DNA of 64,000 nt from an uncultured Pelagibacteraceae bacterium (GTDB lineage Bacteria; Pseudomonadota; Alphaproteobacteria; Pelagibacterales; AG-422-B15). The stretch spans positions 64,361-128,360 of the forward strand of contig CABZLP010000001.1 of the NCBI GenBank assembly GCA_902526565.1, written 5' to 3'. The notes beneath the pieces are model-generated. The model searched no databases. It saw only the letters and a list, made by a program, of their open reading frames with translations, and had not been told where the DNA came from. This document shows, piece after piece, positions 40,512-62,890 of the stretch. A program made the position numbers and the translations under genes. Within the stretch, counting starts at the first letter, position 1; each line of letters starts with the position of its first letter.

Positions 40512-41198
40512 TACTTCATTTTTAAACGACAATTTATCCAGGCTCTCTTTCTTTGACTCAGTAATAATTTTTCCTCTTTTCATGACATAGATATAATCTG
40601 CTAAATCAAATGCAAAATCAAAATATTGCTCAACTAATAGTATGGTCATTCCCTGCTCATCTTTTAAATATTTTATGACTTCTCCAATTTGCTGGATGAT
40701 GTTTGGCTGTATCCCTTCGGTTGGTTCATCCATAAGTAGTAATTTTGGTTTTGAAATCATTGCTCTTGCAATTGCTAATTGCTGTTGTTGACCTCCTGAT
40801 AAATCTCCACCTCTTCTATTTATCATTTTTTTCAATACTGGAAAAAGATCGAAAATTTCGTCAGGTATGAAATGTTCATCACGTTTTAAACATGCAAAAC
40901 CAGTTTCTAAATTCTCTTTTACAGATAATAATGGAAATATAAAACGGCCTTGAGGAACATACCCTACTCCTCTCTTAGCAAGTTGGTGGGAACTAAAGTT
41001 AGTTACATTATCCCCTTCAAAAAGATAATTTCCTGACTTTGAAGGATAAATTCCTGATAAAAACTTTAATAAAGATGTTTTACCAACTCCATTTGAACCC
41101 ATTAAACAAGTAATTTCTTTATTTTTCGCTTTGAGTGAAACGTCAAATAATATCTGAGAAGAACCATAGTAAAAATTCAAATTACTTATATCAATCAT
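40503..41198 (-). CDS. urtE: Urea ABC transporter ATP-binding subunit
   Basis: 231 aa with GSNGVGKTS, LSGGQQQ and LLMDEP motifs. It is the last gene of the urt operon and overlaps ptrB convergently by 9 nt. Confidence 0.85.
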   Translation of the reverse strand: MIDISNLNFYYGSSQILFDVSLKAKNKEITCLMGSNGVGKTSLLKFLSGIYPSKSGNYLFEGDNVTNFSSHQLAKRGVGYVPQGRFIFPLLSVKENLETGFACLKRDEHFIPDEIFDLFPVLKKMINRRGGDLSGGQQQQLAIARAMISKPKLLLMDEPTEGIQPNIIQQIGEVIKYLKDEQGMTILLVEQYFDFAFDLADYIYVMKRGKIITESKKESLDKLSFKNEVSI

Positions 41199-41200
41199 GA

Positions 41201-41983: not shown

Positions 41984-43149
41984 TTTTCCTTAACAAATAT
42001 ATTTCTTAAAAAACCAATTATGCCATTTTCACTAAAAATTGTGATTATTACAAATCCAAACCCTAACAACACTGTCCACCAATTCACCCATTCTATAGTA
42101 AATATGCCCAAAGGAATATCGGGTGCCTGTCCACCAGTAAACCATGACGAAAATAATGAAACAAAAGCGGCACCAATGATTGCTCCATACAATTTTCCTC
42201 TTCCTCCAATAGCAACCCATACAGCGAGATAGATCGATGCAATAGGCGCAAGCTCTGCAGGATTAATTATACCTGCTTGAGGGTAATAAAGAGCGCCAGC
42301 AATACTTGAGATTATTGCTGTTAACACAAATATAAATAATTTATATATTTCGACATTATACCCTAAGAACCTTACTCGTGTTTCGTTATCTCTTATTGAT
42401 GTAATAATTAATCCAAACTTGCTTTTCATAAGTGAATGAAAAAGTAAAAAAATAGATATTAGAAAAATACAACTTGCCCAAAAAAACCCTATGGATATGA
42501 CCTCTTGTCCTAAATACTCAATGCCAGGAATATTCTGCAAACCTGAGAGGCCATTATTACCCCTTAGACCACTGTCATTTTGAAATAAATATAATGACAG
42601 AGCTAAAGTTAATGCTTGAGTTAAAATTGAGAGATAAACTCCAGTTACTCTCGACCTGAATGCAAGCCACCCAAATATAAATGCAAGAATACCAGGTACT
42701 GCAATAACCAAAATCAATTGTAAACCAAGACTATCTGCAAACATCCATATGGATGGTATTTCATAGCCACCGACAACTCCAAAAATCTGGTTTCCAATGG
42801 CATTTGATAATTCAGTTTCGGTTAATGGAAGCAACTCATTAGTGGCAGCCTCCTGAACAATAATGGCTGTTCGCTCATACATTAGCCACATTCCAATCAT
42901 GTAACCACCAAGTCCAAAAAAGGCGAAATGCCCTAGAGACAGAATTCCGCAATAACCCCATACCACATCCATTGCCAGAGCAATTATGCATAGACAAACA
43001 GTTTTGCCTAAAGTTTTGACAAAACTAGTAGATATTAATCCGTTTCCGTAAGGTTCACTAAAAAAAGTTATAAACAGAGAAAATATAATAACAACTATTG
43101 TAAAAATTAATGTGTGTCGAGCTAGTAAATCATTTATTGAATTAGTCAT
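41980..43149 (-). CDS. urtC: Urea ABC transporter permease
   Basis: 389 aa, an HAAT-family (LivM-like) polytopic permease. Confidence 0.85.
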   Translation of the reverse strand: MTNSINDLLARHTLIFTIVVIIFSLFITFFSEPYGNGLISTSFVKTLGKTVCLCIIALAMDVVWGYCGILSLGHFAFFGLGGYMIGMWLMYERTAIIVQEAATNELLPLTETELSNAIGNQIFGVVGGYEIPSIWMFADSLGLQLILVIAVPGILAFIFGWLAFRSRVTGVYLSILTQALTLALSLYLFQNDSGLRGNNGLSGLQNIPGIEYLGQEVISIGFFWASCIFLISIFLLFHSLMKSKFGLIITSIRDNETRVRFLGYNVEIYKLFIFVLTAIISSIAGALYYPQAGIINPAELAPIASIYLAVWVAIGGRGKLYGAIIGAAFVSLFSSWFTGGQAPDIPLGIFTIEWVNWWTVLLGFGFVIITIFSENGIIGFLRNIFVKEK

Positions 43150-45154
43150 CAGCTGCTCTCCCTTTAAGGGCTACTATCCCTTTTGGTCTAAATTGTATAA
43201 ATAAAATAATAAAGATGATCATATAAGTTTGCGCTGCGAGAGTATTAGATGGATTGAACCATTCTATAAATTTTTGAAGGAACCCGATTAGTGAGGCTCC
43301 CGCTAATGTGCCCCATATGTTGCCCACTCCTCCAACAACCACTGTCATAAAGCTCTGAACTATATATTCAGACCCAAGCTCAGATGTAACCTTAGAAAAA
43401 AGTCCAATAGCAATTCCTGCGATTCCTGCAATTCCTGAACCAAAGCCAAAAGTTAACATATTTATTCTTTCAGGATTAATTCCCATGTTGGAGGCCATTA
43501 CTGGATTTTGGGTCACTGCACGAGTCTCCAATCCAAGTCTGGTACGATTCATTACAAAGAGCAACAAACCCAGAAATATTAGACTCAAAATAAATATGGC
43601 AATTCTTATATAACTGATCGATAGATCGTCGCTCAGACTGAGCGATCCATCAAGCCACGATGGAGATGTAAGTGGTCTTGCTTGTGTTCCGAAAATATTC
43701 TTTGCAATTTGTTGTAATGCAATACTGATCCCGAAAGTGGCCAGTAATGTATCAAGTGGTTTACGATACAAATGACGTATAACGAGTCTTTCCATGATCA
43801 CTCCAGCTATAAATGTAATTATAAATGCAAGGGGAAGTGCAACTAAAAGTGATAGTGTATGGTTACTTATAAATTGTTGAACAACATACCCCGTGTAGGC
43901 ACCCATCATGATAAATTCACCATGAGCCATATTAATTACTCTCATTACACCAAAAGTAATCGCTAAACCAATTGCTCCAAGAAAATAGATTGATGCAAGA
44001 CTTAAACCATCAATAAGTAGATCAATATATTTATAGATCTGAACTCTAAAATTTATACTAGCTAGAGTATTTAGTGCGGCATTTGTTACTTCAGAAGAAG
44101 TTTCATTGTAAATCGAATAAAATATAAATTTGTTTACTTCTTCATTAATTTTATTTTCAGAAATAAAAGGAGGTGCTAAATTATTTTCAACTAATTTATT
44201 ATAGGCAGCAATGCGAGATTGTTCATTGTCTAGTGAACTAATAGAATATCCTCCAATAGTATCTCCGCTAATATTTTGTTCTAATATTTTCTTTAATTCT
44301 TCTTGGGTAATCCTTTTTTTATAAACTAGATTATCTGCATATAATTTGTCATATGCATCATTAATTGATATCTCAACATCTTCATTAAAAAAATTAGTTG
44401 TGCCCGATGTTCCATTACTATTTTTGATTGTAAAACCAGGCACAATTACCCTAGCAATATTTTTATTATTAGGAAGAGAGATGCCGACTTTCACTTCTGA
44501 AGAATTGAGGAGTTGATTTAGAGAAGCCCTTATTTCGATCGCGGTATCGCCTTTAAAAGACTCGATTATTTCTAATTTTTTATTATTCGAGTCGGAGTAC
44601 TTAACAATTGCAAATTTTAGCAATCGATCAATAGCATTTTTTAGTTCTGCATCTGACTCATTTATGTAAGCATCTTGTAACACTTCCAAATGTTCAGGCC
44701 GGATATTTCTTTTTAAACTTTCTATGCTTTTTTGTCGTACATTAATATCTGAATTAGATATTTGGTATTTTACTAAAATAGAGTCTATTTTTGCTCTTAC
44801 TCCACTATTGGGTTTAATCTTTTTGATTTCTTTTTTGCTGTAATTGCCGATCCTAGTAAGACCATCTATTTCTAAGGCGTCAAGTGACTCTTCATTTTCA
44901 TTAACTATAACTACTTGTTTCGTATCTTTTATATAGTAAAGACTCTTCGATTTCCATAGTTCTAAAAATCTTGAAACAATTTCATCATCAAAACTTTGTA
45001 TGTCTCTTAGTATAGAATCAACAGTTTTTGCTGAACTCTTAATTATATTTTCTGAATTTTCTATTAAGAATATATTAAATTCATCATGGTGAGCAATTGC
45101 TGGTAGATTTATAAAAAAAGCATACAGAAAAATTATATAAAATTTAATTTTCAT
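43142..45154 (-). CDS. urtB: Urea ABC transporter permease with a ~370-aa N-terminal extracytoplasmic extension
   Basis: The C-terminal ~300 aa is a LivH-like permease (MRVINMAHGEF). The N-terminus has a signal peptide followed by a long non-membrane domain. Confidence 0.8.
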   Translation of the reverse strand: MKIKFYIIFLYAFFINLPAIAHHDEFNIFLIENSENIIKSSAKTVDSILRDIQSFDDEIVSRFLELWKSKSLYYIKDTKQVVIVNENEESLDALEIDGLTRIGNYSKKEIKKIKPNSGVRAKIDSILVKYQISNSDINVRQKSIESLKRNIRPEHLEVLQDAYINESDAELKNAIDRLLKFAIVKYSDSNNKKLEIIESFKGDTAIEIRASLNQLLNSSEVKVGISLPNNKNIARVIVPGFTIKNSNGTSGTTNFFNEDVEISINDAYDKLYADNLVYKKRITQEELKKILEQNISGDTIGGYSISSLDNEQSRIAAYNKLVENNLAPPFISENKINEEVNKFIFYSIYNETSSEVTNAALNTLASINFRVQIYKYIDLLIDGLSLASIYFLGAIGLAITFGVMRVINMAHGEFIMMGAYTGYVVQQFISNHTLSLLVALPLAFIITFIAGVIMERLVIRHLYRKPLDTLLATFGISIALQQIAKNIFGTQARPLTSPSWLDGSLSLSDDLSISYIRIAIFILSLIFLGLLLFVMNRTRLGLETRAVTQNPVMASNMGINPERINMLTFGFGSGIAGIAGIAIGLFSKVTSELGSEYIVQSFMTVVVGGVGNIWGTLAGASLIGFLQKFIEWFNPSNTLAAQTYMIIFIILFIQFRPKGIVALKGRAADD

Positions 45155-45161
45155 AATTTAA

Positions 45162-45200
45162 AAACGCCATAAAGAATATTAACTATTCTTTACAGCGTTT
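45162..45200 (-). terminator. Intercistronic stem-loop / partial terminator between urtA and urtB
   Basis: Stem arms AAACGC-CA-TAAAGAATA and TATTCTTTA-CA-GCGTTT around the loop TTAAC: 15 paired bases with a 2x2 internal mismatch. On the transcribed strand it is followed by UUUUU. Confidence 0.5.
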
Positions 45201-45214
45201 TATTTAGGTTAAAA

Positions 45215-46495
45215 TTAGTAGTTAGACTTTAACTGAACACAGCTGCTGGTCGAAGTATTATACATCCCACAACCTAAGCTTTGCCAATCTGATGTTAAAA
45301 CAGCTGACTCTGCTAAGTGATCTGTCCACGCATCTCCTGGAACCTCGGTCGTTTGGCTAATTATATCAAACTGACCATCCTCAAGGATCTCACCTATTAA
45401 AACAGGTTTAGAGAGATGATGATTTGGGAGCATTTCAGCAGTTCCACCCGTGAGATTTGGAACTGTAATTCCATACATAGCTTCTCTAACTGCATCTACA
45501 TCAGTAGTTCCAGCTTTTTCCACTGCTTTTACATACATGTTAAATCCAATCACGTGCGCTTCCATCGGGTCATTAGTAACTCTTTCTGGTCCCATAGTGC
45601 TTTTCCAGTTTTTGATAAATGCTGTATTTAAATCGGATTCAGCTGATTGAAAATAATTCCACGCAGCTAGGTGGCCAACCAAATTTGTTGTATCAAGTCC
45701 GGATAATTCCTCTTCACCAACTGAGAAAGCGACAACTGGTATGTCTTCAGCGTTCACGCCTGCAGCTGCAAGTTCTTTATAAAATCCAATGTTTGCATCA
45801 CCGTTAATAGTTGAAATAACACCTACCTTCTTTCCATCAGCCCCAAGTGCTACAACATCAGCAACAATTTTCGACCAATCCGAGTGACCAAAAGGTGTGT
45901 AATTTACAAAAATATCAGACTCAGGAATTCCTTTATCAATTAAATATTGATTTAGAATTTTGTTTGTTGTTCTAGGATAAACATAGTCAGTTCCAAGTAA
46001 TGCGAACTTTTCAATGCCTAGTTCTTCTAGATAGTAATCAGTAGCTGGTATAGCTTGTTGGTTTGGAGCGGCTCCGGTATAAAATACATTTTTTGAGCTT
46101 TCTTCACCCTCATATTGAACTGGATAAAAAAGTAATCCGTTAAGTTCTTCAATAACGGGTAATACAGACTTTCTAGACACAGAAGTCCAGCAGCCAAACA
46201 TTACATCAACATCATTGACAGTTATTAATTCTCGAGCTTTTTCGGCAAAAAGTGGCCAATCTGAAGCAGGATCAACAACTACTGCTTCCAGTTTTTTTCC
46301 GAGAATACCGCCCTTTTCATTTTGTTCATCGATCAACATTAACATTGTATCTTTTAACGTTGTCTCTGAGATTGCCATCGTACCCGACAGCGAGTGTAAT
46401 ATGCCAACTTTGATAGTATCTGCATACGCAGTGATACTAAAAAAGAAAAATGACATAACAACTATAATTTTCTTAATCATTATTCGTCCTTTCAT
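45215..46495 (-). CDS. urtA: Urea ABC transporter substrate-binding protein
   Basis: Has a signal peptide followed by IKVGILHSLSGTMAISETTLKD...VDPASDWPLFAEKAREL, which is very characteristic of UrtA. Confidence 0.88.
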   Translation of the reverse strand: MKGRIMIKKIIVVMSFFFFSITAYADTIKVGILHSLSGTMAISETTLKDTMLMLIDEQNEKGGILGKKLEAVVVDPASDWPLFAEKARELITVNDVDVMFGCWTSVSRKSVLPVIEELNGLLFYPVQYEGEESSKNVFYTGAAPNQQAIPATDYYLEELGIEKFALLGTDYVYPRTTNKILNQYLIDKGIPESDIFVNYTPFGHSDWSKIVADVVALGADGKKVGVISTINGDANIGFYKELAAAGVNAEDIPVVAFSVGEEELSGLDTTNLVGHLAAWNYFQSAESDLNTAFIKNWKSTMGPERVTNDPMEAHVIGFNMYVKAVEKAGTTDVDAVREAMYGITVPNLTGGTAEMLPNHHLSKPVLIGEILEDGQFDIISQTTEVPGDAWTDHLAESAVLTSDWQSLGCGMYNTSTSSCVQLKSNY

Positions 46496-46681
46496 TTTTT
46501 TAACTGCTACATAATTTCTTAAAAAAATTAGTGATACGAATCTTTACACTTGCCAATATGACATCTCGAAAAAAAAAATTTAAACATAATTTTTATATTA
46601 CTAATTAGTATCTATAATTTTAGTGATAAAAATAAATGACAATTATTTGTCAACTTGAAATTAAAACACTATGATAATTTC

Positions 46682-47479
46682 ATGAAAGTAAATCTTCAAA
46701 AATCTTTAGGCACAATTGATGTAGAGTTTATAAATAATGATGTTGAAAAATTATATCAGCAAGGATGCCTTAAAGCTTTACTACCTCAATCCTACTCTAG
46801 TTTGTCTCAACTAGTTTTAGTTAATACATCTGGAGGCGTAACGAGTGGTGATAAGTTTAATACCAAAATAGACATACACAATACACATATGCTTTCTACA
46901 AGTCAGGCTGCTGAGAAGGTATATAGTGGATATGGAGACGCGGCTGAACTTAAATATACAATTAACATTGATAATAGTACTCTTTTTTGGATACCAAATG
47001 AAACAATCCTCTTTGATAACTGCAACCTAAGGCGTCAAATTGATATAAATCTTTTAAATGATTCAAATTTATTTTTTTGTGAAACAGTTGTTTATGGAAG
47101 ATCAGCAATGAATGAAACGATTGAAAAAGGTTACTACGCTGATCGATGGAAAATATTCAATGATAATAAAATTGCTCACCTTGAAATCAATGGCTTTGAA
47201 GATAATATAAAAAGAATGCGGGAAAATAAATTTATGCTTAATGATAATATTGCTGTTAATACAATAATAATACTCGGTTCAGAGATGAATAAATTTTATG
47301 CTGTATTAAAGGAAAATATACATGATGAAAAAAGTGTAACTACTGGTATTTCAGAGTGGGCTGGTAAGATAGTAATAAGGAGTATTTCGTCTAATAACTA
47401 TTATTTAAAAAAATTTATAAAAAATATCGTGTCAATCATGATGAATGATAAAATTCCTTACATATGGGGTGCTGCGTGA
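46682..47479 (+). CDS. ureD: Urease accessory protein UreD
   Basis: It is the first gene of the ure cluster and has the [10 protein letters not shown] motif. The track start at 46655 is TTG, so in-frame ATG 46682 is preferred. Confidence 0.8.
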
Positions 47480-47778
47480 AGCTTTCCCCAAGAGAGATTG
47501 ATAAAATGATGGTCAGCATGGCTGCAATAGTCGCTCGAAAGAGGTTAGACCGTGGTGTTAAATTAAATTATCCTGAAGCCGTATCAATTATTTCAGATTA
47601 TGTTGTTGAAGGTGCAAGGGACGGGAAATCTGTAGCTGAACTAATGGAAAGTGCAGCACATGTATTAAAAAAAGATGATTGTATGGACGGAGTTGCTGAA
47701 ATGATTGCCGAAGTGCAGACAGAAGCAACTTTTCCGGATGGAACAAAGTTAGTCACGGTACATAAACCCATAAGGTAA
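47476..47778 (+). CDS. ureA: Urease gamma subunit
   Basis: A GTG start at 47476 gives (M)[11 protein letters not shown], matching the canonical 100-aa UreA N-terminus. The GTGA overlaps the ureD stop. Confidence 0.9.
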
Positions 47779-47785
47779 GAATGAT

Positions 47786-48094
47786 ATGATTCCTGGAGAA
47801 TTAATTACAAGTAACAGTGATATAATTTTAAATAAAGATTTAGTGAGTTTGACAATGAAAGTCTCCAATACTGGTGATCGGCCTATTCAAGTCGGTAGCC
47901 ACTATCACTTTGGCGAAGCAAATGAAAGTCTTGAATTCGATAGAAAGAAAGCCTTAGGCATGAGACTAAACATTTCATCTGGAACCGCGGTAAGGTTTGA
48001 ACCAGGGCAAACAAGAGATGTTGAACTTATTGAAATACAGGGGCAAAAAAAGTTATTTGGATTTAATAAAAAAGTCATGGGAAAAATAAAATGA
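47786..48094 (+). CDS. ureB: Urease beta subunit
   Basis: Starts MIPGE, with [15 protein letters not shown]. Confidence 0.93.
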
Positions 48095-49797
48095 AAAAAA
48101 TTCCAAGACGGTCTTATGCAGCTATGTATGGCCCTACAACAGGGGATAAAGTAAGGTTAGCTGATACTGAACTTTTCATAGAGGTTGAAAAAGACCTTAC
48201 AGTCTACGGTGAAGAAGTCAAGTTTGGTGGCGGCAAAGTTATTCGTGATGGCATGGGACAGTCTCAGGTTTCAAGAAGCGATGGAGCTGTAGACACAGTT
48301 ATTACAAATGCTCTAATACTAGATGTAACAGGGATATTTAAAGCAGATATTGGACTAAAGAACGGAAATATTGATCATATTGGAAAAGCTGGTAACCCTG
48401 ATACACAACCCGGTGTGGATATTATAATTGGTCCAGGTACTGAAGTTATTGCAGGTGAAGGTAAAATTGTAACGGCGGGCGGCTTTGACAGTCATATACA
48501 TTTCATATGTCCTCAGCAAATTGATGACGCCTTACATTCTGGCATTACTACGATGCTGGGTGGAGGTACCGGACCAGCACATGGAACATTAGCAACTACT
48601 TGCACGCCGGGGCCATGGCATATCGGCAGGATGCTTCAATCATCAGATGCTTTCTCGATGAATTTAGCTTATGCAGGCAAAGGAAATTCTTCGATGCCTT
48701 CGGGTTTAGAGGAACAAGTTCTTGGTGGAGCAGCTGCTCTCAAACTTCATGAGGACTGGGGCTCTACTCCTGGTGCAATTGATAATTGTTTAAGTGTTGC
48801 TGATAAATTCGACGTTCAGGTCATGATACATACTGATACGCTCAACGAAAGTGGCTTTGTAGAAAATACAATTAATGCAATTAATAAAAGAACCATTCAT
48901 ACATTTCATACTGAAGGTGCAGGCGGTGGACACGCCCCTGATATAATAAAAATTTGTGGTGAACCCTATGTTTTGCCATCTTCAACTAATCCAACACGAC
49001 CATTTACTGTTAACACTGTTGAAGAGCATTTAGATATGCTAATGGTTTGCCATCACCTTGATAAATCAATACCTGAAGATGTAGCATTTGCCGAAAGTAG
49101 AATACGCAGAGAAACGATGGCTGCTGAAGATATATTGCACGATATGGGTGCTTTCTCAATCATCGCATCTGACAGTCAAGCTATGGGACGCGTTGGTGAG
49201 GTTATTATTAGAACATGGCAAACAGCTCATAAAATGAAAGTGCAAAGAGGAAGACTATCTGAAGAGCAAGGCGATAATGATAATTTAAGAGTCAAACGAT
49301 ACCTTGCAAAATATACAATAAATCCATCAATTGCTCATGGAATTTCTTCCTATGTTGGCAGTCTCGAAAAAAATAAAAGAGCTGATATCGTTATCTGGGA
49401 CCCAGCTTTCTTTGGCGTTAAACCTGAGATTGTAATAATGGGTGGAAGTATTGCCTGCGCTCAAATGGGCGATCCAAACGCATCGATTCCAACTCCCCAA
49501 CCTGTATATACCCGCCCAATGTTTGGAAGTTATGGAGGATCGCTTGAAAACTCATCGGTAACTTTTGTCAGCAAGAGTTCTCTGGAGGCAGGCAGCCTTA
49601 ATCATCTCAATATACAAAAAACTATGCTACCAGTAAGCAATACAAGGTCAATTTCAAAAAAAGATATGGTTTTAAATGATATTTGTCCAACTATAGATGT
49701 AAATCCTGAAACATATGAGGTTAGAGCAAATGGAGAAATTATAACATGTGAACCAGCGGAAGAACTGCCAATGGCACAAAGATATTTTATGTACTGA
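48091..49797 (+). CDS. ureC: Urease alpha subunit
   Basis: 568 aa with [26 protein letters not shown] and MVCHHL motifs. Confidence 0.97.
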
Positions 49798-49799
49798 TT

Positions 49800-50243
49800 A
49801 TGGAAATTTGTAATTCAATATTAAGTAACTGTAATTCCTCAAAAGAGTTTGATACAATTTCGCTATCTTATGAGGAGAGATTCATGCGACGCAAAAAATT
49901 AGTTTCTGACAAAGGTCATGAATTTCTTGTTGATCTTGAAGAGATGAAATCAGTCACGAGTAATCAAGCGTTCAAACTTGAGAGTGGAAAATTAATTAAT
50001 ATAAAATCAAAAAAAGAAAATTTAATTGAGATCAAGTCAGAAGATTTAAATAAATTAATATGGCATATTGGGAATAGACATATCCCCTGTCAGATTGAAG
50101 CTACGAGAATTCTAATACAAAGTGACCATATAATTGAGGATATGGTGAGAAGACTTGGGGGGCAGACAAAATCTGTGATTGAACAATTTAATCCTGAAGG
50201 TGGGGCTTACGGTATGGGAAGAACGCATGGTCACAAGCATTAA
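49800..50243 (+). CDS. ureE: Urease accessory protein UreE
   Basis: Supported by its position in the cluster, the GNRH motif (HIGNRHIP) and a His-containing tail THGHKH. Confidence 0.8.
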   Translation: MEICNSILSNCNSSKEFDTISLSYEERFMRRKKLVSDKGHEFLVDLEEMKSVTSNQAFKLESGKLINIKSKKENLIEIKSEDLNKLIWHIGNRHIPCQIEATRILIQSDHIIEDMVRRLGGQTKSVIEQFNPEGGAYGMGRTHGHKH

Positions 50244-50886
50244 AAGTAAAGACTTTTTAGATTTAAAATCTCATCAAATTTTACATCTTTGGTTTTCGTC
50301 TTCATTTCCTATTGGTTCATACGCATATTCGCATGGTCTCGAGGCTATAATTGATGACAAGCTTATCAAAAATAAAAATGACGTATTGGCATTTATTAAA
50401 AGTATTCTCTTTGAGGGAACATGCAGAAATGAGTATATCTTTATCAAGGCTACCTATGATGGAATTAATGTAAATGATTTAGTGCTTGCAAGTTGCTCAT
50501 CCAAGGAACGTCAGCTTGAAACACTCAAAATGGGTGATGCCTTCAGAAAAATTATGTCTGAGAGTTGGGACTATACAATAGATAATGAAACCACTTTTCC
50601 AGTTTGTATTGCTCAAGCAGGAATTAAATTTCATATTGCCTTTGATGATTTGGTTGATTTTTATATTCAATCATTCATATCAAATTTAATTAATATATGC
50701 GTTAAACATATACCTTTAGGTCAAAAAGATGGTCAAGATTGTATGGTGTCATTTCTTGGAATGATGAAAAGATTTTATAATACTATGAAAGACTATAGCT
50801 TAGACGATTTACGCAATTCAATGTTTTGTGCGGATATTTACAGTATGAAACACGAAAATCTTACATCCAGAATTTATGTCACATGA
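50227..50886 (+). CDS. ureF: Urease accessory protein UreF
   Basis: Has the motif [16 protein letters not shown] 50227 is preferred over the track start at 50179. Confidence 0.8.
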
Positions 50887-51503
50887 ATAATTTTCGAGGT
50901 CCATTAAAAATTGGTATCGGCGGCCCTGTAGGTGCGGGTAAAACAAGTCTTACTGAGGCTTTGTGCAAAAATTTATCTAAAAATATTTCAATGGCAGTTA
51001 TATCGAATGATATTTACACAATTGAAGATGCCGAGTATTTAATGAGAGCTCAAGTTTTACCAATTGAGAGAATTAAAGGCGTCGAAACAGGTGGATGCCC
51101 TCATACCGCAATTCGAGAAGATGCTTCGATTAACCTCTTGGCTGTAGAAGAAATGAAACAAAAATTTCCTGATTTACAGTTGCTATTGATTGAGTCAGGT
51201 GGAGATAATTTGGCTGCAACGTTTAGTCCGGAGTTGGTAGATTTATCAATCTATGTGATTGATGTTGGAATGGGAGGTGATATTCCTCGTAAAGGTGGAC
51301 CAGCAATAAAAAAATCTGATTTACTAATCATCAATAAAACCGATTTAGCAAATTATGTAAATGTTGATTTAGATCAAATGAAATTAGATGTTGAAACTGC
51401 CCGATCAGGCATGCCTTATATTTTTGGTGAAATGAAGAATAATAAGGGAATAGAAAATATTGCTGAATTTCTCAAAACTGAGGGCGGTCTTGAAATAAAC
51501 TAA
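50883..51503 (+). CDS. ureG: Urease accessory GTPase UreG
   Basis: ATG 50883 overlaps the ureF stop (ATGA) and gives [21 protein letters not shown], followed by ETGGCPH and ESGGDNL. Confidence 0.93.
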
Positions 51504-53605
51504 AACCCACTTTCCTGAATGAGTATTGAGGTAGTTGCATTAAATATATTTTGAAAAATATTATAATTTTCAGAATCTATTTTTACAGATCCGGCAGTCT
51601 GCCATTGGAAATCTTTCGGATTCTCTGAAGAAGAAAAATTTAATTGATAAAGAGCATTTTCTGGTCTCTGAACCTGTTTCTTTCCAAGTATCTCTCTTGA
51701 TGCAATTGTGCCTCCATAAGTTGAGGTCAAAGCCAAATACGGCAACTCTTCGGTTGAAGTTTCATTTGATGATACTAATTCGACTTTGACTTTCGCAAAT
51801 TCATTATTTTTTGCATGAAAGTAACCGCTTGAAACTTTTTTTATTTTATTAAGATCCGTCTCACTAACAAAAGCTATCACTTGCACTTCTTCTGACTGAA
51901 CAATTGAAAATAGCTTATCTTTTTTATTTACCCATTGATTAGCGTTTAGACTTTTCAAATCTTTTATTATACCATCAGATGGCGCATAAATTGATAATGC
52001 TTTATTCTCTTCTTTCAATGAATTCAAAATTTCAATCTCCTTTTGTAACTCATTCTCAAGTATTAATAGATTGCTAAGATCAAGCTTTGATCCCACTCTA
52101 CGATCAAGTTTTTGCTGTATCATTTTCACACGGTCAATTGCTTTTTCGACTTTATTAGAAATCAATGGGTTCGCCATAATAACTAGCAAATCACCTTCAG
52201 CTACGTATTGATCATGCGAAATAAAAACCTTTCTAATCCTTGAATCTTCAGAGGCAAAAATATCAAGAACAACACCTTCTTCAATAACTGCTGGCAAACT
52301 AAGGGATGTACGCCATGGAACAAGCATAGCAAACATAAACACTGCAAATAAGATGATTGACCTCATAGAAGATCTATTGAATTTCATAGATTTTCTAAGC
52401 TTCCACCATTCAATGACTTCTCTGGCAATCGGCAATAAAATGAACCATAGAATTTCTACTATAAATAAAATAATTCCTAATATTTTAAATGTTAAATAAT
52501 AAACCAATAACGCAATACCAATAAAAATGAAGAAACGATAAATCCACGTAGCCCATGCGTAAATTATGAAAGTCCACCTTCTGTTAGCAATCAACTGTTC
52601 AGGTGGTTGAAATTTAAAACCAAAAAGCCACTCTCTTATCTGCCATCGACCTAAAGCAAATGAACGTGGTTGCAAATTTTCAGCTTTAAGGAAGTCAGAT
52701 AGCACATAATAGCCATCAAACCTCATGAAAGGACTTATGTTTATCAATAAAGATGAAATCCAGCTTGATGTAGCAATGAAAAAAGCTGCACTTTTCATTA
52801 TGCCTTCAGGAAATACAGCCCATGCAAATGTAGCAATCAAGGCTAGGTGTAGTTCAGTTAACATACCTGCAAAATTTATTAGTAAACGTTTTCTGTGGTC
52901 AGTGAGTTTCCAGGCATCGGAGGTATCTGTATATAAAAACGGAAAGAAAACCAACATAGCTAAGCCAATTGATGAAACTTTACACTTATAATATGTAGCT
53001 ACGTATGCATGACCCAACTCATGTAAAGCTTTTACAAAAACAATTGTAATTCCAAATAAGATCAAACCATTAATGTTGTAGAAATATGAAAAGGTTGAAA
53101 GAAATTTTTCATAATTAGTTATTGTCAAAAATATTCCGATTAAACCTAACCCATAAATAATACGTCTGACTGATAATGAGCTTAAAAACAAGGCAATGGG
53201 TAAACTTCTTTGAAGCCAAGTAACAGGTCTTACTAACGGTATTTTGAAAAATAGATAATTGTGAATAAGTTTAAGCAGCCAATGTTTATTGGTTTTATTT
53301 TTTTGAACTACTAAAGATTTAACTTCTTCACTTGTCTTTTTGATAGTTAAATTGTTTTGATCAAGAAAGTTTATGAACTCACTTATTTCTTCTTTAGTTA
53401 CTAATAATTTCGTTTCATTAATTTTTTTTATGAAATCTTCTAATTGAGATCCACTTGACCAATTATTTAAGAGATCAAAAGCATTTTTGTTTATCGAAAA
53501 ATATTTATTTCTCAAAGAGTCATATAGAAGCCATGATGAAGAGCCGTCCTCTTTTCGGGGGCCTTCGCTCAATTTTAAATCTTGTCTAAGATATGGGACA
53601 ATCAT
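51500..53605 (-). CDS. Fusion protein: PqqD/RRE-like N-domain, site-2-protease (M50)-like polytopic membrane domain and HlyD-type membrane-fusion domain
   Basis: HELGH lies at aa 195-199 (nt 53009-53023) and [10 protein letters not shown] at aa 289-298 (nt 52712-52741), matching the S2P motifs HExxH and NxxPxxxxDG. The C-terminal ~260 aa has lipoyl-like halves flanking a coiled coil ([12 protein letters not shown] ... [12 protein letters not shown]). Confidence 0.7.
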
Positions 53606-54949
53606 TTAAAATCCTAAAAACTGTCTCGTGAGATTTATAGGAACACGAAATATGTAATAAAAAATACTGGTCTTTGCGCCATAAATCTTAGCGGTACCGC
53701 GTAAACCTATCCTTGGAACCTCACCTTGACTGTCATGATAATTAGCAATGATCTTATAAGCTAAAATATTCTCAGATGTAAGTGCGGGTTTATATGAAGT
53801 ACGCAATACCTTACCGTCTAAAGAATTGAGAGGGTCACTATCTAAAAAAACTTTTACTCTGGCTTCTTTCTTAATCAAAAGAGAGTCTTTAGTAGGCAGG
53901 AAGATTTGAAATTCAATTTGTTCAGGATCAGCTATGGTTAATATTTTTTCTCCAATGTTAACTGGCTTCCCTTGCCAATCAGTAAAGTCTTCAACGACAG
54001 CTATACCTTCTCTGTCTGCAAAGATGATTGAGTATTTCAATTGTTCTTCTGCATATTCTGCTTCTTTTTTTCTCAAACCTACTTCTGTTGATAGTTCAAC
54101 TAAACGAGCTTTGTCATCTGAATTTGTAAATGATGACTGCTTGATGCGTAAAAGCTCTGCTTCTGCTACTTCAAGCTCTTGAAGCGCAATTTCATACTGG
54201 TTTTTAAAATTTAAATCATCCAATCTGACAAGTTCTGTCCCTGTCTTTACGTTTTCATTAGTCTTAATTAAAACTTCTTTTACCACGCCATTTACTGGTG
54301 AAGTCACAATGGTTGGATCTTTCGCAACTACTTCAACGGGCGCTAAAGCTGTCATACTAATTGGAAAAAACATTACTGCCGTTACAGAGGCAATCACTGC
54401 CCATTTAATCCATCCAGTAAACAAACGGTTGATATTTGAAATAATTATATTTTTTGACCTGAACGAGTTCAGTGCATGACTAAAGGTTTCTGAAATATGA
54501 AGTAAAAGATCTTTTTCAGAGTTGCTGATAACTTCTGATCTAACCATGACTAGATACCCAACATTTTTTTCAATCCACGAACGAAGAGGAACGAATATTA
54601 AATGTTTAGGAAAATTATCAGGAGTAATAAGATTTAACTCTTTTATAGAAGTATCGTTGAGATTAAATTCCGAAATATCATCAAAGCTGATCAGATCTTT
54701 TTTATTTATTAATGTTTCAACAAAAGTAACAGTTGGAGCTGTTCTATCGATAATTGATAGGTCAGAAATAGTATGTACTTTTAATCGATTTATACTTGAT
54801 CTATTGAGAAGAAATAAAAAATTATAATCAACTATGCTTCGCAATTCATTAGCGCAAATGAAAGCAAGCTCAGTTTCAGTTTCTGCATTACGAAACTTTT
54901 TCTCAAGCGTTATCAGTCGCGCAATTTTTATAGAGGAATTATCATTCAA
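53606..54949 (-). CDS. HlyD-family membrane-fusion protein with a ~170-aa cytoplasmic N-terminal domain (GAF-like?)
   Basis: Has a single TM segment (WIKWAVIASVTAVMFFPISM), then VTSPVNGVVKEVLIKTNENVKTGTELVRLDD, a coiled coil, and IFADREGIAVV...GEKILTIADP. The TTG start overlaps the upstream stop (TTGA), and its own stop abuts the next ATG. Confidence 0.7.
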   Translation of the reverse strand: MNDNSSIKIARLITLEKKFRNAETETELAFICANELRSIVDYNFLFLLNRSSINRLKVHTISDLSIIDRTAPTVTFVETLINKKDLISFDDISEFNLNDTSIKELNLITPDNFPKHLIFVPLRSWIEKNVGYLVMVRSEVISNSEKDLLLHISETFSHALNSFRSKNIIISNINRLFTGWIKWAVIASVTAVMFFPISMTALAPVEVVAKDPTIVTSPVNGVVKEVLIKTNENVKTGTELVRLDDLNFKNQYEIALQELEVAEAELLRIKQSSFTNSDDKARLVELSTEVGLRKKEAEYAEEQLKYSIIFADREGIAVVEDFTDWQGKPVNIGEKILTIADPEQIEFQIFLPTKDSLLIKKEARVKVFLDSDPLNSLDGKVLRTSYKPALTSENILAYKIIANYHDSQGEVPRIGLRGTAKIYGAKTSIFYYIFRVPINLTRQFLGF

Positions 54950-55665
54950 AATGTTGCCGTCCCACTCATTCCAGGAAGTAATGTTTCATAATTTTCATCA
55001 AATTTTGCAGTAGCGTCAATAGTTTGACTTACTGGATCAATATTCGCCCCCAAGGTATTCACTGTAGCACTATATATTGAACCATTTTCATCAATAACAA
55101 TACTTAATGGGTGGCCCTCAGACAACCATGCCAACCATTTACTTGAAATCATAAGTTTTGCTTCCAATATTCCAGAGCCAATGATTTGAATCATCGGTTG
55201 CTGCCTTTCAATGCTTTCATATTCATTCACAAATACTTTGGACATTGTTCCATCATAGGGAGCACGAATAATGCAACGATCTGTATTAAGCTGAGCAATT
55301 TTCAACTCTGACTTAGCCCTATCTACTGCAATTTGTGACAATTGAACTTCATACTCTCCAATGGATCTCATCGTTGCAAGTTCTTGATTGCTCTTCAAGG
55401 TTACGATGGCACTTTCTAACTCCGCTTGTACTACATCTTTTTGGGCTTCAAAAAAAGAACAATCCAACTTAATTAATATATCTGATTTTTTAAAATTAGC
55501 ACCTTCTGCAAATGGAATAGATTCAACTTTTGAGGCAAGTTCGCTTGATATTGTTGCCTCTTCAGTTGCCGTTACCAAAACACGAGTTGAATATTCTTCA
55601 GCTAGTAAATTAAATGGAAAAAGTACGCTGCAAGCAATAACTGCAAATGTTACAATATTATTCAT
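54946..55665 (-). CDS. Small periplasmic membrane-fusion (biotinyl-lipoyl/HlyD-like) protein with a signal peptide
   Basis: 239 aa with an N-terminal signal or anchor, then ISSELASKVESIPFAEGANFKKSDILIKLD, a short coiled coil, and IIRAPYDGTMSKVFV. Confidence 0.65.
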   Translation of the reverse strand: MNNIVTFAVIACSVLFPFNLLAEEYSTRVLVTATEEATISSELASKVESIPFAEGANFKKSDILIKLDCSFFEAQKDVVQAELESAIVTLKSNQELATMRSIGEYEVQLSQIAVDRAKSELKIAQLNTDRCIIRAPYDGTMSKVFVNEYESIERQQPMIQIIGSGILEAKLMISSKWLAWLSEGHPLSIVIDENGSIYSATVNTLGANIDPVSQTIDATAKFDENYETLLPGMSGTATF

Positions 55666-55675: not shown

Positions 55676-58600
55676 TTAGCTTACTAGAGATATAATCTTT
55701 TCACCATAGCTATCCGCTCTTTTGGCATGTAGCTTTAATTGCTCATCAAGTGGAATAAAAGAAATTTCGTCATCTAATGCCGAATTTTCATCATCTGTCT
55801 CAGCACCTGTTATTTCGTTAAGATCAATTTCAACTTCAATAATTCTTTCTTTTCCGTCTTCGTCTTCAGCAATAATCTTTAGTTCAAGTACTTGAAGACT
55901 ATCTGTTAAGAATGAGGGAGCTGCTGACCCTGTTCGACCTTTAGATGGGTCAGCTGCTATTTTTCCTGTTTGAGGATCAATAGAAATCCAATCTGGAAGT
56001 TCACCGCCACCTTTTAGCTCAGCTTTATACATTTTTACATTCGATTGATTGTTATCAATTACATCTAATGTGTATTGGCCTGCATCCATTTGAAGATTGC
56101 TTAACTTCATTGTACCTTCAAAATCTGTTTGAGAATTCAAGTTATTATTTATTGTTTGATTAGATGAATTGTTGTTCTCTCTGATCAAGTTTACGTTTGC
56201 GTCATTATCAACAACGATATTAGTTTGGCCAACAGTACCGCGAGTGAAGTCTTTATCATTCTTGATTTTAGCTTTGTCTAAAATAATGTTTATATCACGA
56301 GTATTTCCATCTTTATCTAATGCAACAAGTTGAACTTCTACCTGATCAATTCCATCTGGCATTTCTGCAGTTGTCTCACCTGTTTCAGGATTAACTTTAA
56401 TCCATTCAGGCAATGATTTTCCATCGGATAATTGTCCTGAATATAATTCAACATTCTTTTGGTTATCGTCGTTTAATTTAACGCCTACAGCTAAATCAGT
56501 GTTATCATCACCCGATACCTCGCTCGCAACTGCATCCATCAATCTCAAGCCACCATTAAACTTAAGTGGCTTAGATAGGGATGCGGTATCTGCAATTGAA
56601 ATAGTATCAAGAGTAAAGCCATCATCATCGATAATATTTACTTCATTAATATATTCCTGCATTTTTCCTGGCTTTACTTTAATTGGTTTAGTTGGCTCAA
56701 GAGTACCTTGTGGTTCTGGTTCATTAGGTTCTGGTGGGAGCGTGATAACATTTGGAATTACTTTAATGGTAAAGGTATGATCTGTATAAAGTCCTGCGCC
56801 GTCAATAGCTCTTATTGTGATTGTATAAATACCCGGTGTATCAATACTTCCATTGAGTTTTTTATCTTTTAGTTGGAGACCATCAGGTAAACTTGTTTCA
56901 GCATCAGTTTCAGGGTCAATAATTTTGTATTCAGCAATATCATAAATACCACTATCTGGATCGTCAAAAATCTGTCTATGCCTCAGGAATATTTTTTGAC
57001 CAGTAACATATGTTGGAAGATTTACGGGAGCTACTACCTCAGGTGGATCATTGATGCCAGTCACAGTGATGGCTATCTGAGCTTCTACAGGCGTTTCTCC
57101 ATCTGTTGCGGTATATGTGAAGTACTCCGTCTTAGTTTCACCAGGGTTTAGAGATTTTGCATTATTAGCCTTGTATTCATAGCTGCCATCGGAATTTATA
57201 GTTAAGTCACCATACGTTCCTGTTAGGGGTGATCCAATTGTCCCAGGTGTCCCCGTTCCAGCTTCTTCTCCTGTTCGTATTGTATTTACAGTTAAACTGT
57301 CACCATCAGGGTCTGTATCATTCTTCAATACTCCTTTTGAAGCATCTTTTACTCCTGTCGCACCTGCATCGATTTCTATAGTATCATCTTTTGGTACTGG
57401 CGGATCACTTTTACCAGTAACAGTTATCGCAATCACACCAATGTCTTCATTTGTTCCATCTGTTACAGTATAGTTGAAATATTCTATTTTGCTCTCGCCT
57501 CTTTTAAGCGCATCTGCTGCAGCCTGATCAGCAACATAACTATAGCTTCCATCAGCATTAAGAGTAAGAGTACCGTAAGTTCCTACAAGTCCTGAACCAA
57601 GTGTACCTGGGTCACCACCGCCTTCTGATTGCCCAAGTCTAATTCCAGAAATTGTTAATGACTCACCGTCTGCATCAGTATCGTCTGCGTTAAGTGCAAA
57701 TGTTGTATTAGCCGCTCTCGTAATTGTCTCACCTTTAGGAACAGTATCAGTATCGTCAACCGCTACAGGATCATTATCGTTTATTCCTGTTACTGTGAAT
57801 GTAAGATTTGCTGTTGACGTAGCCGTTCCATCACTCACCGTATACGTAAATGTATCTGCCCCAGTTTGACCTGTAACGAGTTGATCTGATTTTGTTTGAT
57901 CAGCAACATAAGTGTACGACCCATTCGCATTCACTGTCAGAGTTCCATACTCGCCTGTTAATGAAGCCCCTACTGTACCGGTCGCACCTGTGCCATCCTT
58001 TGATCCCGTTCTGATGCCAGTTATTGTAAAGTTTCCACTCGTATCATCCCCATCAACATCCGTATCGTCATGATCTAATTCTTGAGTGTCACTTACTGTT
58101 CGACTAATGGTTGCATCCTCATTAACACTATCTGTGTCATCAACGGCAACGATTGGGTCGTTTGCCCCATTTATGGTTACTGTAAGTGTTGCAGTGGATG
58201 AGTTTTTATCATCATCGTCCTTTACGGTGTATGTGAATATTTCAGAAACAGAGTCACCTGCATCTAAGGCTTCAGCTGCAGCTGTATTCGCTATGTATGT
58301 ATAACTTCCATCAGCTGCTACTGTTAATGTTCCGTAAGTACCTAAAACTCCAGCTCCTGCTACACCACTATTGCTTGTACCGTTTGACGAAACATTGGTA
58401 ACCGCAAGACTTTCCGTATCTCCACCAGTATCGTTTGTTAATACTCCACCTGCTGTATTAACTGTCAATGTCTGACTTTCAGTGGCAGTAGCTGTGTCTG
58501 CTGAACCGACAGGACCTACACCTGTTACAGTTATAACCAAATTTGCCGTATCGGTTGTTCCAGCGCCATCACTTACGGTATAAGTGAATGTATCGGTTGC

Positions 58601-61600
58601 AGTTGCACCATGAGCTAACCCGTCAGCACCACTGGTATTGGCAGTATATACATAGCTACCATCAGAAGCGAGCGTAAGGGTACCGTATGTTCCTGTTAAC
58701 TCTTGACCGACTGTCCCTCCATTGACTCCTGAAACAGTTAAACTTGAACTTGCATCAGCATCAGTATCATTAGATAAAACACCACTGCCAGCACTTATTG
58801 ATATTTGCGCATCCTCATTAACAGCGCCTGTATCATTTACTCCAACAGGGTCGTCATCAATACCTTTTACGGTGAAGGTTATAGTTGCTGTGTCTGTTCC
58901 AGTTCCATCAGTTACTGTGTATGTGAACGTATCTGTTGCAATATCTCCTGCATCAAGAGCATTAGCATTGTTAGCATTATAAACGAAGCTACCATTGCTT
59001 TGTATTGTTAATTGACCATACGTTCCAGAGACTGCATTTCCGAGAGTGCCTCCTGCTATCGCAGAAACTGTTAGAGGGTCATTATCTGGATCAGTATCAT
59101 TAAGGAGAACATCTCCTGAATGATCTCCACTTTCGTTATTATTATTACTATCTGTTCCTGTTACTGCAGATGTGCCGTCAGTAACTTGAAGCTGAGAGTC
59201 CTCAAGGATATATCCTGTGTCATTATTTCCTGTGGGAGGAACCACAGTAGTTCCAGTTACTGTTATTGCTAGTTGTCCTGTATCAGTATCACCAGCTTGA
59301 TCTGTTACAGTATATGTAAAGTAATCAACGACAGTTGCGTCATTAGCCAGACTAAGCGCATCAGGTCGATTGGCAGCGTAACTATACGATCCGTCTGCGT
59401 TGATCGTGACTGTTCCGTATGTTGTTGTAAATTCTTGGCCAAGAGTTTTTGTATCGCCACTACCTGTCTTTTGTCCAGTTCGTATCGCTGTAATAGTAAG
59501 ACTACCTGGAACATCATCAGCGTCTGCATCTGTATCGTCTTGATCAAGCTCTTGTGCATCGCTTGTACCTCTTGAGATTGATGCACCAGCATTTACCGCA
59601 TCAGTATCATTAACAGCAGTAATATCATCGTTAATTCCAGTCACCGTAATAGTTAATGTTGCAGTACTTGCATTTTTATCGGCATCATCTTTAAGAGTGT
59701 ATGTAAATACATCAGTAACTTGATCACCAGGATCAAGGGCATCAGCTGCTGATTGGTTGGCAACATATTCATAGCTACCATCAGCCGCCATGGTTAATTC
59801 ACCATAAGTTCCAGTAACAGCTTGTGCAGCATTACCACTATTCCCAGTAACGCCGTGAGTTATGCCAGTTATAGCTAAACTTTCAACATCGTAGCTTGCA
59901 TTGTCATCATCATTACTGATTACACCAGATGCTTCATTTACTGTTAAAGTAGCATCTTCATTGACTGAACCAGTATCAGCAACAGCTTGAGGGCCTACAC
60001 CTTTTACAGTGATGACTAAATCTGCTGTATCAGTTGTTCCAGCGCCATCACTTACGGTATAAGTGAATGTATCGGTTGCCGTAGCATCAGCAGCGAGACC
60101 ATCCTCACTTCTACCATTTGCAACATAAGTATAACTACCATCTGAACTCAAAGTCAGAACACCATAGGTTCCATTTACTTCTTGACCAACTGTGCCACCC
60201 GAAATTGAAGACACTGTGAGACTTGAACTAGCATCAGCATCAGTATCATTTGATAATACTCCACTTCCCGTGCTGACAGTAAGGGTTTTATCCTCGTTGA
60301 TTGCACCTGCATCATTATTGCCAACTGGATTATCATCGACTCCGTTAACAGTGATTGTTAGGGTTGCTGTGCTTGAATTTACATCATCATCATCTTTAAC
60401 TGTGTAAGTGAAGACATCAGTTTCAGAGTCACCGGCATCTAAGGCTTCAGCTGCAGCTGTGTTCGCCGTATAAGTATAAGTACCATCAGCTGCAACGGTC
60501 AGAGTACCATATGTACCTAAAACACCTTGAGTGGCGTTCCCACTATTCCCTGTAGAGTCTGAGGTAATATTTGTAACAGCTAAACTCTCACTATCATAAG
60601 CGGCATTATCATCATCATTTGCCAGAACACCAGTTGAAGAAGCATTATTGGCGTCTAGTGATGCATTTTCATTTACTGAAGCCGTATCGTTTACTCCTAA
60701 AGGTCCAACACCCGTAACTGTAATTGCAAGTTCAGCAGTATCTGTATCGTTTGGACTGCTTGTGTGATCTCTCACTGTATAGGTAAAGTAATCAATCGCA
60801 GATACGCCTGCCGCTAACGCGTCTGCCCCACTTCTGGTTGCAGCATAGCTATAGCTACCATCTGCAGCTACAGTTAATTCACCATAAGTACCATTTAGAG
60901 CCTGACCTATTGTGCCCGCTGTTGTTCCACTAGTTGCAGACTCTCTTCCTGTTCTGATTGCCGTGATTGTAAAACTGCCGGATACATCATCGTCATCAAC
61001 ATCTGTATCATCGTGATCTAACTCCTGAGAGTCTGAAGTACTTCTATTTATTGTTTTATCTTCAAATACGGAGTCGGTATCGTTTGCAGCGATAATAGGA
61101 TCGTTCACTCCTGTGATTGTTATTGTCAGCGTTGCGGTATCTGTAGCGGTTTGGTCAGTTACTGTGTATGTAAATGTATCTGTTACTGTATCACCAGGAT
61201 CTAGTTCGTCAGCTGCATCTTTATTTGCATTGTATGTATAGCTACCATCTGCACTCATAGTTAGCTGTCCATAGGTGCCATCTAGAGCGGATCCAAGAGA
61301 TCCACCGGATATTGCACTTACTTCAAGCGAATCTCCGTCAGCATCTGTATCGTTTGCTAAAACTCCGCTGCCAGCAGTTACTGAAACGCTAGCATCCTCA
61401 TTAACGGCTCCTGTGTCGTTGTTACCAACTGGAGCTTCGTTTGCAACTGGAGCCCTGGTAATGATACGAATAAAGTCACCTTTCTCACCATTTTTAGTTC
61501 CAATTCTGATAGTCTTGTTGCTATTTGAAATTTCAAACCAGTCTCCATTCCCCTCTTGACCAGGAGCATTGTCATTATTGTACTCTAAGTCCCTCTTACC

Positions 61601-62704: not shown

Positions 62705-62890
62705 TTATATATATAATTTTTCGCACTAGTATGATTATTGGCATTTAGCCTTTTCTTTATACATGACTAAAATTCTAAAGGTACTCTCATAAGCTAAAAT
62801 TACCCATTTTGGGCAAATTTTTTTTAGAGTTTTGAGCCATTTGTCTATATTCCCTTCTCATAACAACTAGTAAACAGATATCCTTAATTG

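Follow-up and report, generated by a model that had tools for sequence, protein, structure and literature searches.

An RRE-type domain in front of an intramembrane protease, and a candidate leader tag on giant repeat proteins, in a TolC-linked adaptor cassette

A 64,000-nucleotide stretch of the genome of an uncultured Pelagibacteraceae bacterium (GenBank assembly GCA_902526565.1, contig CABZLP010000001.1, positions 64,361 to 128,360 of the forward strand; hereafter the window) raises the question of what a peptide-recognition domain does in front of a membrane protease. The 701-aa open reading frame (ORF) at 51500-53605 on the minus strand encodes a fusion of an N-terminal domain, an M50 site-2 protease and an HlyD adaptor, and its current public annotation is generic (‘HlyD family adaptor’ or ‘site-2 protease family protein’). 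RiPP recognition elements (RREs) are regarded as a hallmark of the pathways for RiPPs, peptides that are made on the ribosome and modified after translation, and are used in genome mining for new antibiotics; to our knowledge, they have so far been known only from small-peptide natural-product pathways. A preliminary description of the window, made without database searches, recognized a PqqD- or RRE-like segment at the start of the fusion and proposed as its ligand either the conserved N-terminus of the adjacent giant protein or an unannotated small precursor. We find that the N-terminal ~90 residues of the fusion are very probably an RRE/PqqD-type domain, and that no other candidate for its ligand comes close to the N-terminal tag of the giant protein.

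The flagged segment, 53342-53542 on the minus strand, translates to residues 22-88 of the fusion and is confirmed as RRE-like; the peptide quoted in the preliminary description falls within this range and lacks a single residue at either end. It holds the RRE/PqqD-like core (beta2, beta3 and alpha1 to alpha3), as delimited by the translation, a predicted structure and two profile alignments described below. The domain is slightly larger than this, starting at about residue 2 with an extra conserved strand and ending near residue 88. Family conservation, structure prediction and Foldseek comparison define a whole cytoplasmic N-domain of residues 1-110 (53276-53605, minus strand), in which the conserved strand LPxLRxDLxL at the N-terminus and the beta3-alpha3 RRE fold are followed by a basic linker helix (residues 92-110) that runs into the membrane.

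Among the NCBIfam models, that of the PqqD-family chaperone WgkC matches residues 23-86 of the fusion with an E-value of 5.5e-5. Since tests on a single sequence are weak, the family of the fusion was gathered by exhaustive search with residues 1-400. It comprises 1602 representative clusters at E<1e-30, nearly all of ~700 aa, and the alignments begin at query residue 2-6; the N-domain is thus an integral, conserved part of the family. When 61 diverse members were scanned singly, PF05402 (PqqD) was the sole recurring Pfam family (four members, best E 1.7e-5), and the four NCBIfam models with the most member matches were all PqqD-type chaperones (WgkC in eight members, lasso-peptide PqqD in four, PqqD_rel_X in two and PQQ PqqD in one). 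A genome-wide search with PF05402 at 1e-6 missed the genes of this type. We then compared profiles directly, using as reference a PqqD profile built from 30 genuine PF05402 matches in alphaproteobacterial genomes. hhalign placed residues 22-93 on nearly the whole PqqD domain with a probability of 93.6% (P 2.2e-7, 70 columns), while the controls (the reversed profile, 20 column-shuffled versions and one unrelated alignment) all scored 0.6% or less.

The predicted fold points the same way. An AlphaFold2 (AF2) model of the N-domain, based on the family alignment, has a mean confidence score (pLDDT) of 89.4, and of more than 90 for residues 1-90. It contains strands at residues 10-15, 24-29 and 34-38 and helices at 40-47, 55-64 and 71-83, which in the model is the beta3-alpha3 winged-helix topology of RREs; the order of strand, motif and helix read from the letters in the preliminary description agrees with it. 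The ten best matches in a Foldseek search of the PDB were all RRE domains, with probabilities of 0.89-1.0 compared to 0.44 or less for all others, and with TM-scores of 0.57-0.67 normalized to the target. They include TbiB1 and TfuB1 (lasso-peptide leader binders, both with bound leaders), the RRE of the sactisynthase CteB, and PqqD. The absence of a PqqD/RRE profile match or of a winged-helix fold had been named beforehand as grounds for abandoning the assignment. Both were looked for and both were found, the former through hhalign and WgkC with the PF05402 model itself silent, and the RRE assignment therefore survived.

Conservation varies along the domain. The family consensus reads LPxLRxDLxLxxG....GxPxWxlxDPxRNrYFxI....LLxxW..G...(variable helix)...FLxxNxL; R7, D29, W49 and L86 are invariant, and G21, W25 and F80 are invariant or nearly so. 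Conservation peaks in the canonical leader groove (beta2/beta3 with the end of alpha3) and is lowest on alpha2. This sequence pattern is consistent with a leader binding as an added strand along beta3/alpha3. That the fusion’s own N-terminus (LPxLRxDL) might mimic a tag in the groove was considered and is not supported; in the DSSP pattern of the model, residues 2-6 seem to pair with beta1 as a hairpin that lies away from the beta3 edge.

The rest of the fusion indicates on which side of the membrane the domain would work. The M50/site-2 protease membrane domain (residues ~115-430; 52316-53263, minus strand) is identified by PF02163 (37.5 bits against a cut-off of 27.2), by NCBIfam model NF041824 and by its motifs, namely HELGH at residues 195-199 (nucleotides 53009-53023) and NxxPxxxxDG from N289 to D297. 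The metal-binding and catalytic residues H195, E196, H199, N289 and D297 are invariant in 60 diverse relatives, and the protease appears catalytically intact as judged by these motifs. Residues 433-701 (51503-52309, minus strand) form an HlyD-type membrane-fusion, or periplasmic adaptor, domain (PF13437, E 4.5e-11; PF16576, E 2e-8), and the stop codon lies at 51500-51502. The RRE lacks a signal peptide and leads into the basic linker, while the last transmembrane helix (residues 412-430) has a K/R-rich loop before it and the HlyD domain after it. By these features, the RRE should be cytoplasmic and the adaptor periplasmic.

The NCBIfam model that fits the fusion best is NF041824 itself, that of the daptide intramembrane metalloprotease (E 2e-37). 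The match is co-linear, from fusion residues 23-388 to profile positions 17-361 of 379, and its score of 129.2 bits is far under the equivalog cut-off of 300. In daptide proteases, an RRE is joined to the N-terminus of an intramembrane site-2 protease, and the daptide leader is cut off by MpaP, an intramembrane peptidase that depends on an RRE (Ren et al. 2023, doi 10.1101/2023.03.08.531785). The combination of RRE and site-2 protease is therefore already known; the HlyD fusion and the genetic context described below are outside the published description of MpaP. Neither daptide precursors nor Mpa-type enzymes were found near the fusion gene. By sequence, the fusion and MpaP are homologues, yet the fusion does not count as an MpaP equivalog and stands outside a RiPP cluster.

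What, then, could this domain read? The fusion gene is the last of four packed minus-strand genes, encoding in order a giant protein, a 239-aa adaptor, a 447-aa adaptor and the fusion. The gaps between them are 10, -4 and 0 nt, which leaves no room for a small precursor gene. The giant protein (2342 aa; 55676-62704, minus strand) starts with the LEPR tag, followed by a variable linker, a DUF4347 domain (PF14252, E 3.5e-48), 12 cadherin/VCBS repeats (Cadherin_4, E 3e-140) and a C-terminal region. The tag, which we propose as RRE ligand and substrate leader, occupies residues 5-29 (LIQALEPRLMLDGAAVATAIDVVDD; 62618-62692, minus strand). It matches a profile of such tags with an E-value of 4e-14, and this match is the only one in the source genome.

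The tag recurs on large proteins encoded next to relatives of the fusion gene. We compared 80 related loci from Pelagibacteraceae, Nitrospira, Hyphomicrobium, Azospirillum, Marinomonas, Colwellia, Arcobacter and others. The tag is visible in 32 of them, that is, wherever the N-terminus of the large neighbour falls within the retrieved DNA, and the tagged gene may lie upstream, downstream or in divergent orientation. The motif of these large neighbours is [AS]LE[PSQE]R[IL]MFD[GA]AAxAT, within a 20-residue tag summarized as ALEPRxMFDGAAxAT, and residues L9, E10, R12, D16 and A18 are invariant across phyla. It is found solely at the N-termini of large proteins: all strong matches lie in large frames, save where a contig end or an internal stop interrupts the frame. 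In an alignment of 21 giant N-termini, the tag is followed by a gap-rich, low-complexity linker of ~25-80 aa and then by DUF4347. AF2 gives residues 1-66 of the giant protein a pLDDT below 50, compared to more than 90 for DUF4347 (residues 70-222), so the tag is predicted to be a free tail rather than a strand of a folded domain.

The coupling between tag and fusion gene extends beyond gene neighbourhoods. One panel of 301 alphaproteobacterial genomes was searched for the N-domain specific to this gene set (hereafter the cassette), for DUF4347 and for a 26-residue tag profile. The N-domain occurs in 20 genomes, always in an open frame of 483-815 aa, DUF4347 in 21, and the tag in 17 (E <=5e-5, with a clean gap to noise that begins at E 0.02). 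Cassette and tag occur together in 16 genomes of at least 13 families, compared to 1.1 expected by chance (Fisher p 5.6e-22, uncorrected for phylogeny). Because the tag profile was trained on cassette neighbours, the informative half of this test is the near-absence of the tag from cassette-free genomes; the lone genome with a tag only is a 64%-complete metagenome-assembled genome. Tagged genes that lie 276 kb and 890 kb from the cassette are still confined to cassette genomes, and in one genome with three cassettes, every cassette has a tagged protein of its own at a distance of 6-16 kb.

It is the tag that goes with the cassette, and DUF4347 was discarded as the coupled feature. The tag is missing from seven cassette-free genomes that have DUF4347, and four cassette genomes encode tagged proteins that have no DUF4347. 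In an eighth cassette-free genome, the DUF4347 protein starts with a different variant, LEPRILLSAD (locus L089, G188:C36:1000-4000). The ‘LEPR-XLL’ class (NF012209) is hence wider than the cassette-linked LEPRxMFDGAA subclass, and the wider class may have other partners. As an independent replicate, 151 Nitrospirota genomes were searched: cassette and tag occur in the same nine genomes with none discordant (p 1.1e-14, likewise uncorrected). Nitrospirota genomes with the cassette encode up to five tagged proteins for two cassettes. In the genome with five, one class of tag is limited to the neighbourhood of one cassette, the other class is found beside the second cassette and at two remote loci, and the two RREs have diverged from each other. 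From these sequence comparisons, the first of the two ligands proposed in the preliminary description, the conserved N-terminus of the giant protein, gains strong support as the candidate leader.

The partners of the fusion are conserved as well. In almost every related locus, the gene for the 447-aa membrane-fusion protein (53606-54949, minus strand; HlyD_3, E 3e-13) lies directly upstream of that for the fusion; it is preceded in turn, in conserved position, by that of the 239-aa short secreted membrane-fusion protein (54946-55665, minus strand; TIGR01730, 105.9 bits, above the cut-off). This adaptor-adaptor-fusion order is essentially universal in the 80 loci, across several phyla. A TolC-like outer-membrane factor is encoded in 54 of the 80 loci and a large repeat protein also in 54, with flanks incomplete; no other families recur. 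In the window, the TolC-like factor is a lipoprotein encoded divergently from the giant gene (62888-64000 and past the window end, plus strand; PF02321 OEP, E 4e-34).

Taken together, these results allow a mechanism to be proposed. In the cytoplasm, the RRE would capture the disordered tag ALEPRxMFDGAAxAT of a large repeat protein, probably by taking it up as an additional strand beside beta3/alpha3, in the way that other RREs do. The Ala-rich segment after the tag would thereby be offered to the membrane-embedded protease, which would remove the tag as a leader, and this processing would be coupled to handover of the protein to the adaptor/TolC conduit. We infer that the RRE, and no other part of the cassette, binds the tag, that the protease of the fusion cleaves it, and that the cassette exports the giant protein; the fusion would then be an RRE-dependent intramembrane leader peptidase for giant proteins within a TolC-linked adaptor cassette. 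For the whole series of binding, cleavage and handover for export, we consider the chances to be close to even. In its broadest form, the proposal is that the cassette is a previously unreported, ATPase-less, TolC-linked system of many phyla for protein sorting or secretion, in which the RRE reads the LEPR leader and the fused metalloprotease removes it at the handover to three adaptors; this we put forward tentatively, as a real possibility rather than a probability.

Several results weigh against this proposal. For the domain assignment, the Pfam model PF05402 matched neither the whole fusion nor residues 1-109 of it, and searches of the PDB sequences with phmmer and with a profile gave nothing significant (the best being a Fur winged helix, E 0.3). 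For the coupling, the p values are, as stated, uncorrected for phylogeny, and the tag profile was itself built from neighbours of the cassette. Four of the 20 alphaproteobacterial cassette genomes have no strong tag match: one has a diverged tag on a DUF4347 protein, two are highly fragmented and one has a weak cassette match. On the plasmid pMSR-1 of Magnetospirillum gryphiswaldense (L137, 8505-16091), the genes for TolC, the two adaptors and the fusion lie beside that for an untagged protein. For the role of the RRE, a mirror-tree comparison of 24 loci gave Spearman correlations with tag distance of 0.51 for the RRE, 0.61 for M50 and 0.55 for HlyD, with no RRE-specific signal (partial correlation of tag and RRE given M50, 0.09). 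For export, no ABC transporter is encoded in the operon or past the gene of the outer-membrane factor, and no ATPase family recurs in the 80 loci. With no ATPase or other energizer conserved near the cassette, the model leaves the export of a 2000-9500-aa protein without a power source. A shortened SecA-like motor was tried as the energizer and rejected, a second SecA-type gene being found in two of 12 cassette genomes, far from the cassette, and being absent here. The two shortened SecA-like proteins are those of Nitrospira defluvii (697 aa, G301:C1:2665076-2666239) and of an Arcobacter (652 aa, G302:C7:49883-51043), both unlinked to the cassette.

Some of these results would also be expected if the domain had the RRE fold but did not read the tag. 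It could instead be an assembly or gating module, for example one that docks the cytoplasmic part of the 447-aa adaptor or that controls entry to the protease in the way of the PDZ domains of RseP, with the LEPR tag being read by M50 or another cassette protein. Winged-helix folds serve many kinds of interaction, the divergence of the tag follows M50 at least as well as the RRE, and the conserved cytoplasmic domain of ~175 residues in the 447-aa adaptor could be the partner or even the true receptor. We nevertheless judge this unlikely, given that the close structural matches are all binders of peptide leaders (two of them solved with the leader bound), that the homologous MpaP is described as RRE-dependent, and that conservation of the N-domain is highest at the canonical leader groove. 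A second alternative accepts the tag and questions its destination: the cassette would be a device for retention and release, or for quality control, and the giant protein would take a different way out of the cell while the RRE-protease holds or trims its N-terminal tail, so as to fix the protein in the envelope or set it free, in the manner of LapG/LapD acting on LapA. Giant repeat adhesins are classically held by their N-termini, the folded DUF4347 close to the N-terminus could serve as a plug, and no conserved energizer was found in or near the cassette. This appears somewhat more doubtful still. None of the 80 loci has ABC or type I secretion system (T1SS) genes beside the giant gene, yet they have the TolC-like channel and three adaptors. 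The giant protein itself has no RTX block or recognized C-terminal T1SS signal: it matched neither HemolysinCabind nor any T1SS C-terminal domain, with the reservation that T1SS signals are poorly conserved. In addition, an RRE that has no signal peptide and should lie in the cytoplasm would meet the tag before export, not after it.

The remaining alternative is the conventional one, and the second of the ligands originally proposed. A small unannotated precursor would be bound by the RRE, matured by the protease and exported, the giant protein being only a frequent neighbour. Precedent speaks for such a pathway: all characterized RREs, including that of the closest homologue MpaP, act on small precursor peptides, and bacteriocins are exported by sets of adaptors and TolC. 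The locus itself does not. The packed operon has no space for a small gene, small ORFs outside the large genes are conserved no further than four closely related SAR11 loci among the 80, and no family of RiPP tailoring enzymes recurs in those loci. Moreover, the strong tag matches lie in large frames, and tag and cassette are coupled genome-wide even at a distance. A small precursor was accordingly rejected as RRE ligand and is not supported as the source of the leader; the conventional RiPP explanation is largely refuted already, and we regard it as highly improbable.

Individual components of the cassette show further features. The first ~175 residues of the 447-aa adaptor (54425-54949, minus strand) form a conserved cytoplasmic domain ahead of the transmembrane helix; it has no Pfam match and is a candidate RRE partner or sensor of the system. 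The DUF4347 domain of the giant protein (residues 70-222; 62039-62497, minus strand; PF14252) has a predicted caspase/legumain-type (clan CD-like) alpha/beta fold with pLDDT above 90. Its histidine H122 (IHxIxHG) and cysteine C169 (YGC) are invariant in 21 sequences, and its best match in the PDB is a chain of the Pseudomonas aeruginosa type VI secretion complex Hcp3-Tce1 (E 1.9e-5), followed by legumain and caspase-3/7. On the basis of the model, it may be a self-processing or effector protease domain. The complete TolC-like factor is 911 aa long (C1:127248-129983 in the genome), ~400 aa longer than its relatives (median 527 aa), the surplus being a He_PIG Ig-like domain together with a C-terminal extension that is long, acidic and of low complexity. 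Beyond the fusion gene, at positions 40503-51503, minus-strand genes encode a urea ABC transporter and plus-strand genes form the complete urease cluster ureDABCEFG. Here ureG and the fusion gene converge, their ends overlapping by 4 nt, and the urease cluster is unrelated to the cassette. In Candidatus Pelagibacter sp. Uisw_114 (L007, a complete genome) and Marinomonas rhodophyticola (L074), the giant, 447-aa adaptor or fusion gene is spread over two to three ORFs, a sign that the module may be frameshifted or decaying in some strains.

Relatives of the fusion also occur on plasmids or chromids. Full-length relatives were found on 57 plasmid or chromid records, including 18 from Escherichia, 13 from Azospirillum and 8 from Citrobacter, and others that include Cupriavidus metallidurans CH34 and the plasmid pMSR-1. 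A Kosakonia plasmid encodes the complete operon, with a tagged Ig-like protein that starts SLEPRMLFDGAIAAT. Tractable experimental hosts are therefore available, and the module is also carried by the tractable, non-pathogenic Azospirillum brasilense and C. metallidurans CH34. Directly downstream of the fusion gene on this Kosakonia cowanii plasmid (L138, 18128-20235) are three tandem genes for ‘tail fiber proteins’ of ~225 aa, each with a lipoprotein-like signal. The 36-kb pMSR-1 has conjugation-type (VirB/Trb) genes and is non-mobilizable according to PLSDB. The protein encoded upstream of its cassette is a 492-aa ‘ELWxxDGT repeat protein’ without a LEPR tag as annotated, which may be a truncated or untagged cargo.

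If an RRE does read a tag on proteins of 2000-9500 aa, the meaning of this domain becomes broader. The fusion family would then be a source of false positives in RRE-based genome mining, and the widespread, unexplained LEPR N-terminus of giant repeat proteins would gain a function. The comparisons suggest a conserved machine of the cell envelope that deals with giant proteins and has no ABC pump. It occurs in SAR11, whose members are some of the most abundant bacteria in the sea, as well as in nitrite-oxidizing Nitrospira, plant-associated Azospirillum and enterobacterial plasmids. We found no published paper that links LEPR/DUF4347 proteins with a cassette of RRE-site-2 protease and adaptors.

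Among known systems, the nearest to the fusion is MpaP, in which an RRE likewise stands N-terminal to a homologous M50 site-2 protease and which cleaves an N-terminal leader. Unlike the fusion, MpaP has no HlyD domain and no adaptor or TolC partners. Its substrates are precursors of ~40-60 aa with an ELExMEAP leader, encoded in a RiPP gene cluster, whereas the cassette comes with no tailoring enzymes or small precursors and its candidate substrates are proteins of 500-9500 aa. With PqqD, TbiB1/TfuB1 and CteB, the N-domain shares the beta3-alpha3 winged-helix fold, and profile homology to PqqD is detectable. It differs from them in staying below the PF05402 threshold, in its extra conserved N-terminal strand, in its partner enzyme and in having no RiPP context.

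At the level of the cassette, there is a likeness to type I secretion, as in the microcin/bacteriocin exporter CvaB-CvaA-TolC and in the giant-adhesin systems LapA-LapBCE and SiiE-SiiCDF. In both cases, an adaptor and a TolC-type channel adjoin the substrate gene, a leader-type signal is apparently cut by a protease within the inner-membrane component, and substrates can be giant proteins with repeats of the Ca-binding type. However, the cassette lacks the ABC transporter by which type I secretion is defined, or any other ATPase. Compared to peptidase-containing ABC transporters, its protease is an intramembrane metalloprotease rather than a C39 cysteine protease, and it has three adaptor paralogues; compared to the giant T1SS adhesins, its signal is N-terminal, while theirs is C-terminal. 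A further parallel is found in the sorting pairs GlyGly-CTERM/rhombosortase and PEP-CTERM/exosortase, where a short terminal tag on unrelated large proteins is also genomically coupled to one dedicated membrane protease, which handles several tagged proteins, including some from distant genes. In contrast to those signals, the LEPR tag is N-terminal and has no transmembrane helix with basic tail, the protease belongs to a different family, and recognition in the cassette has apparently been delegated to a separate RRE domain.

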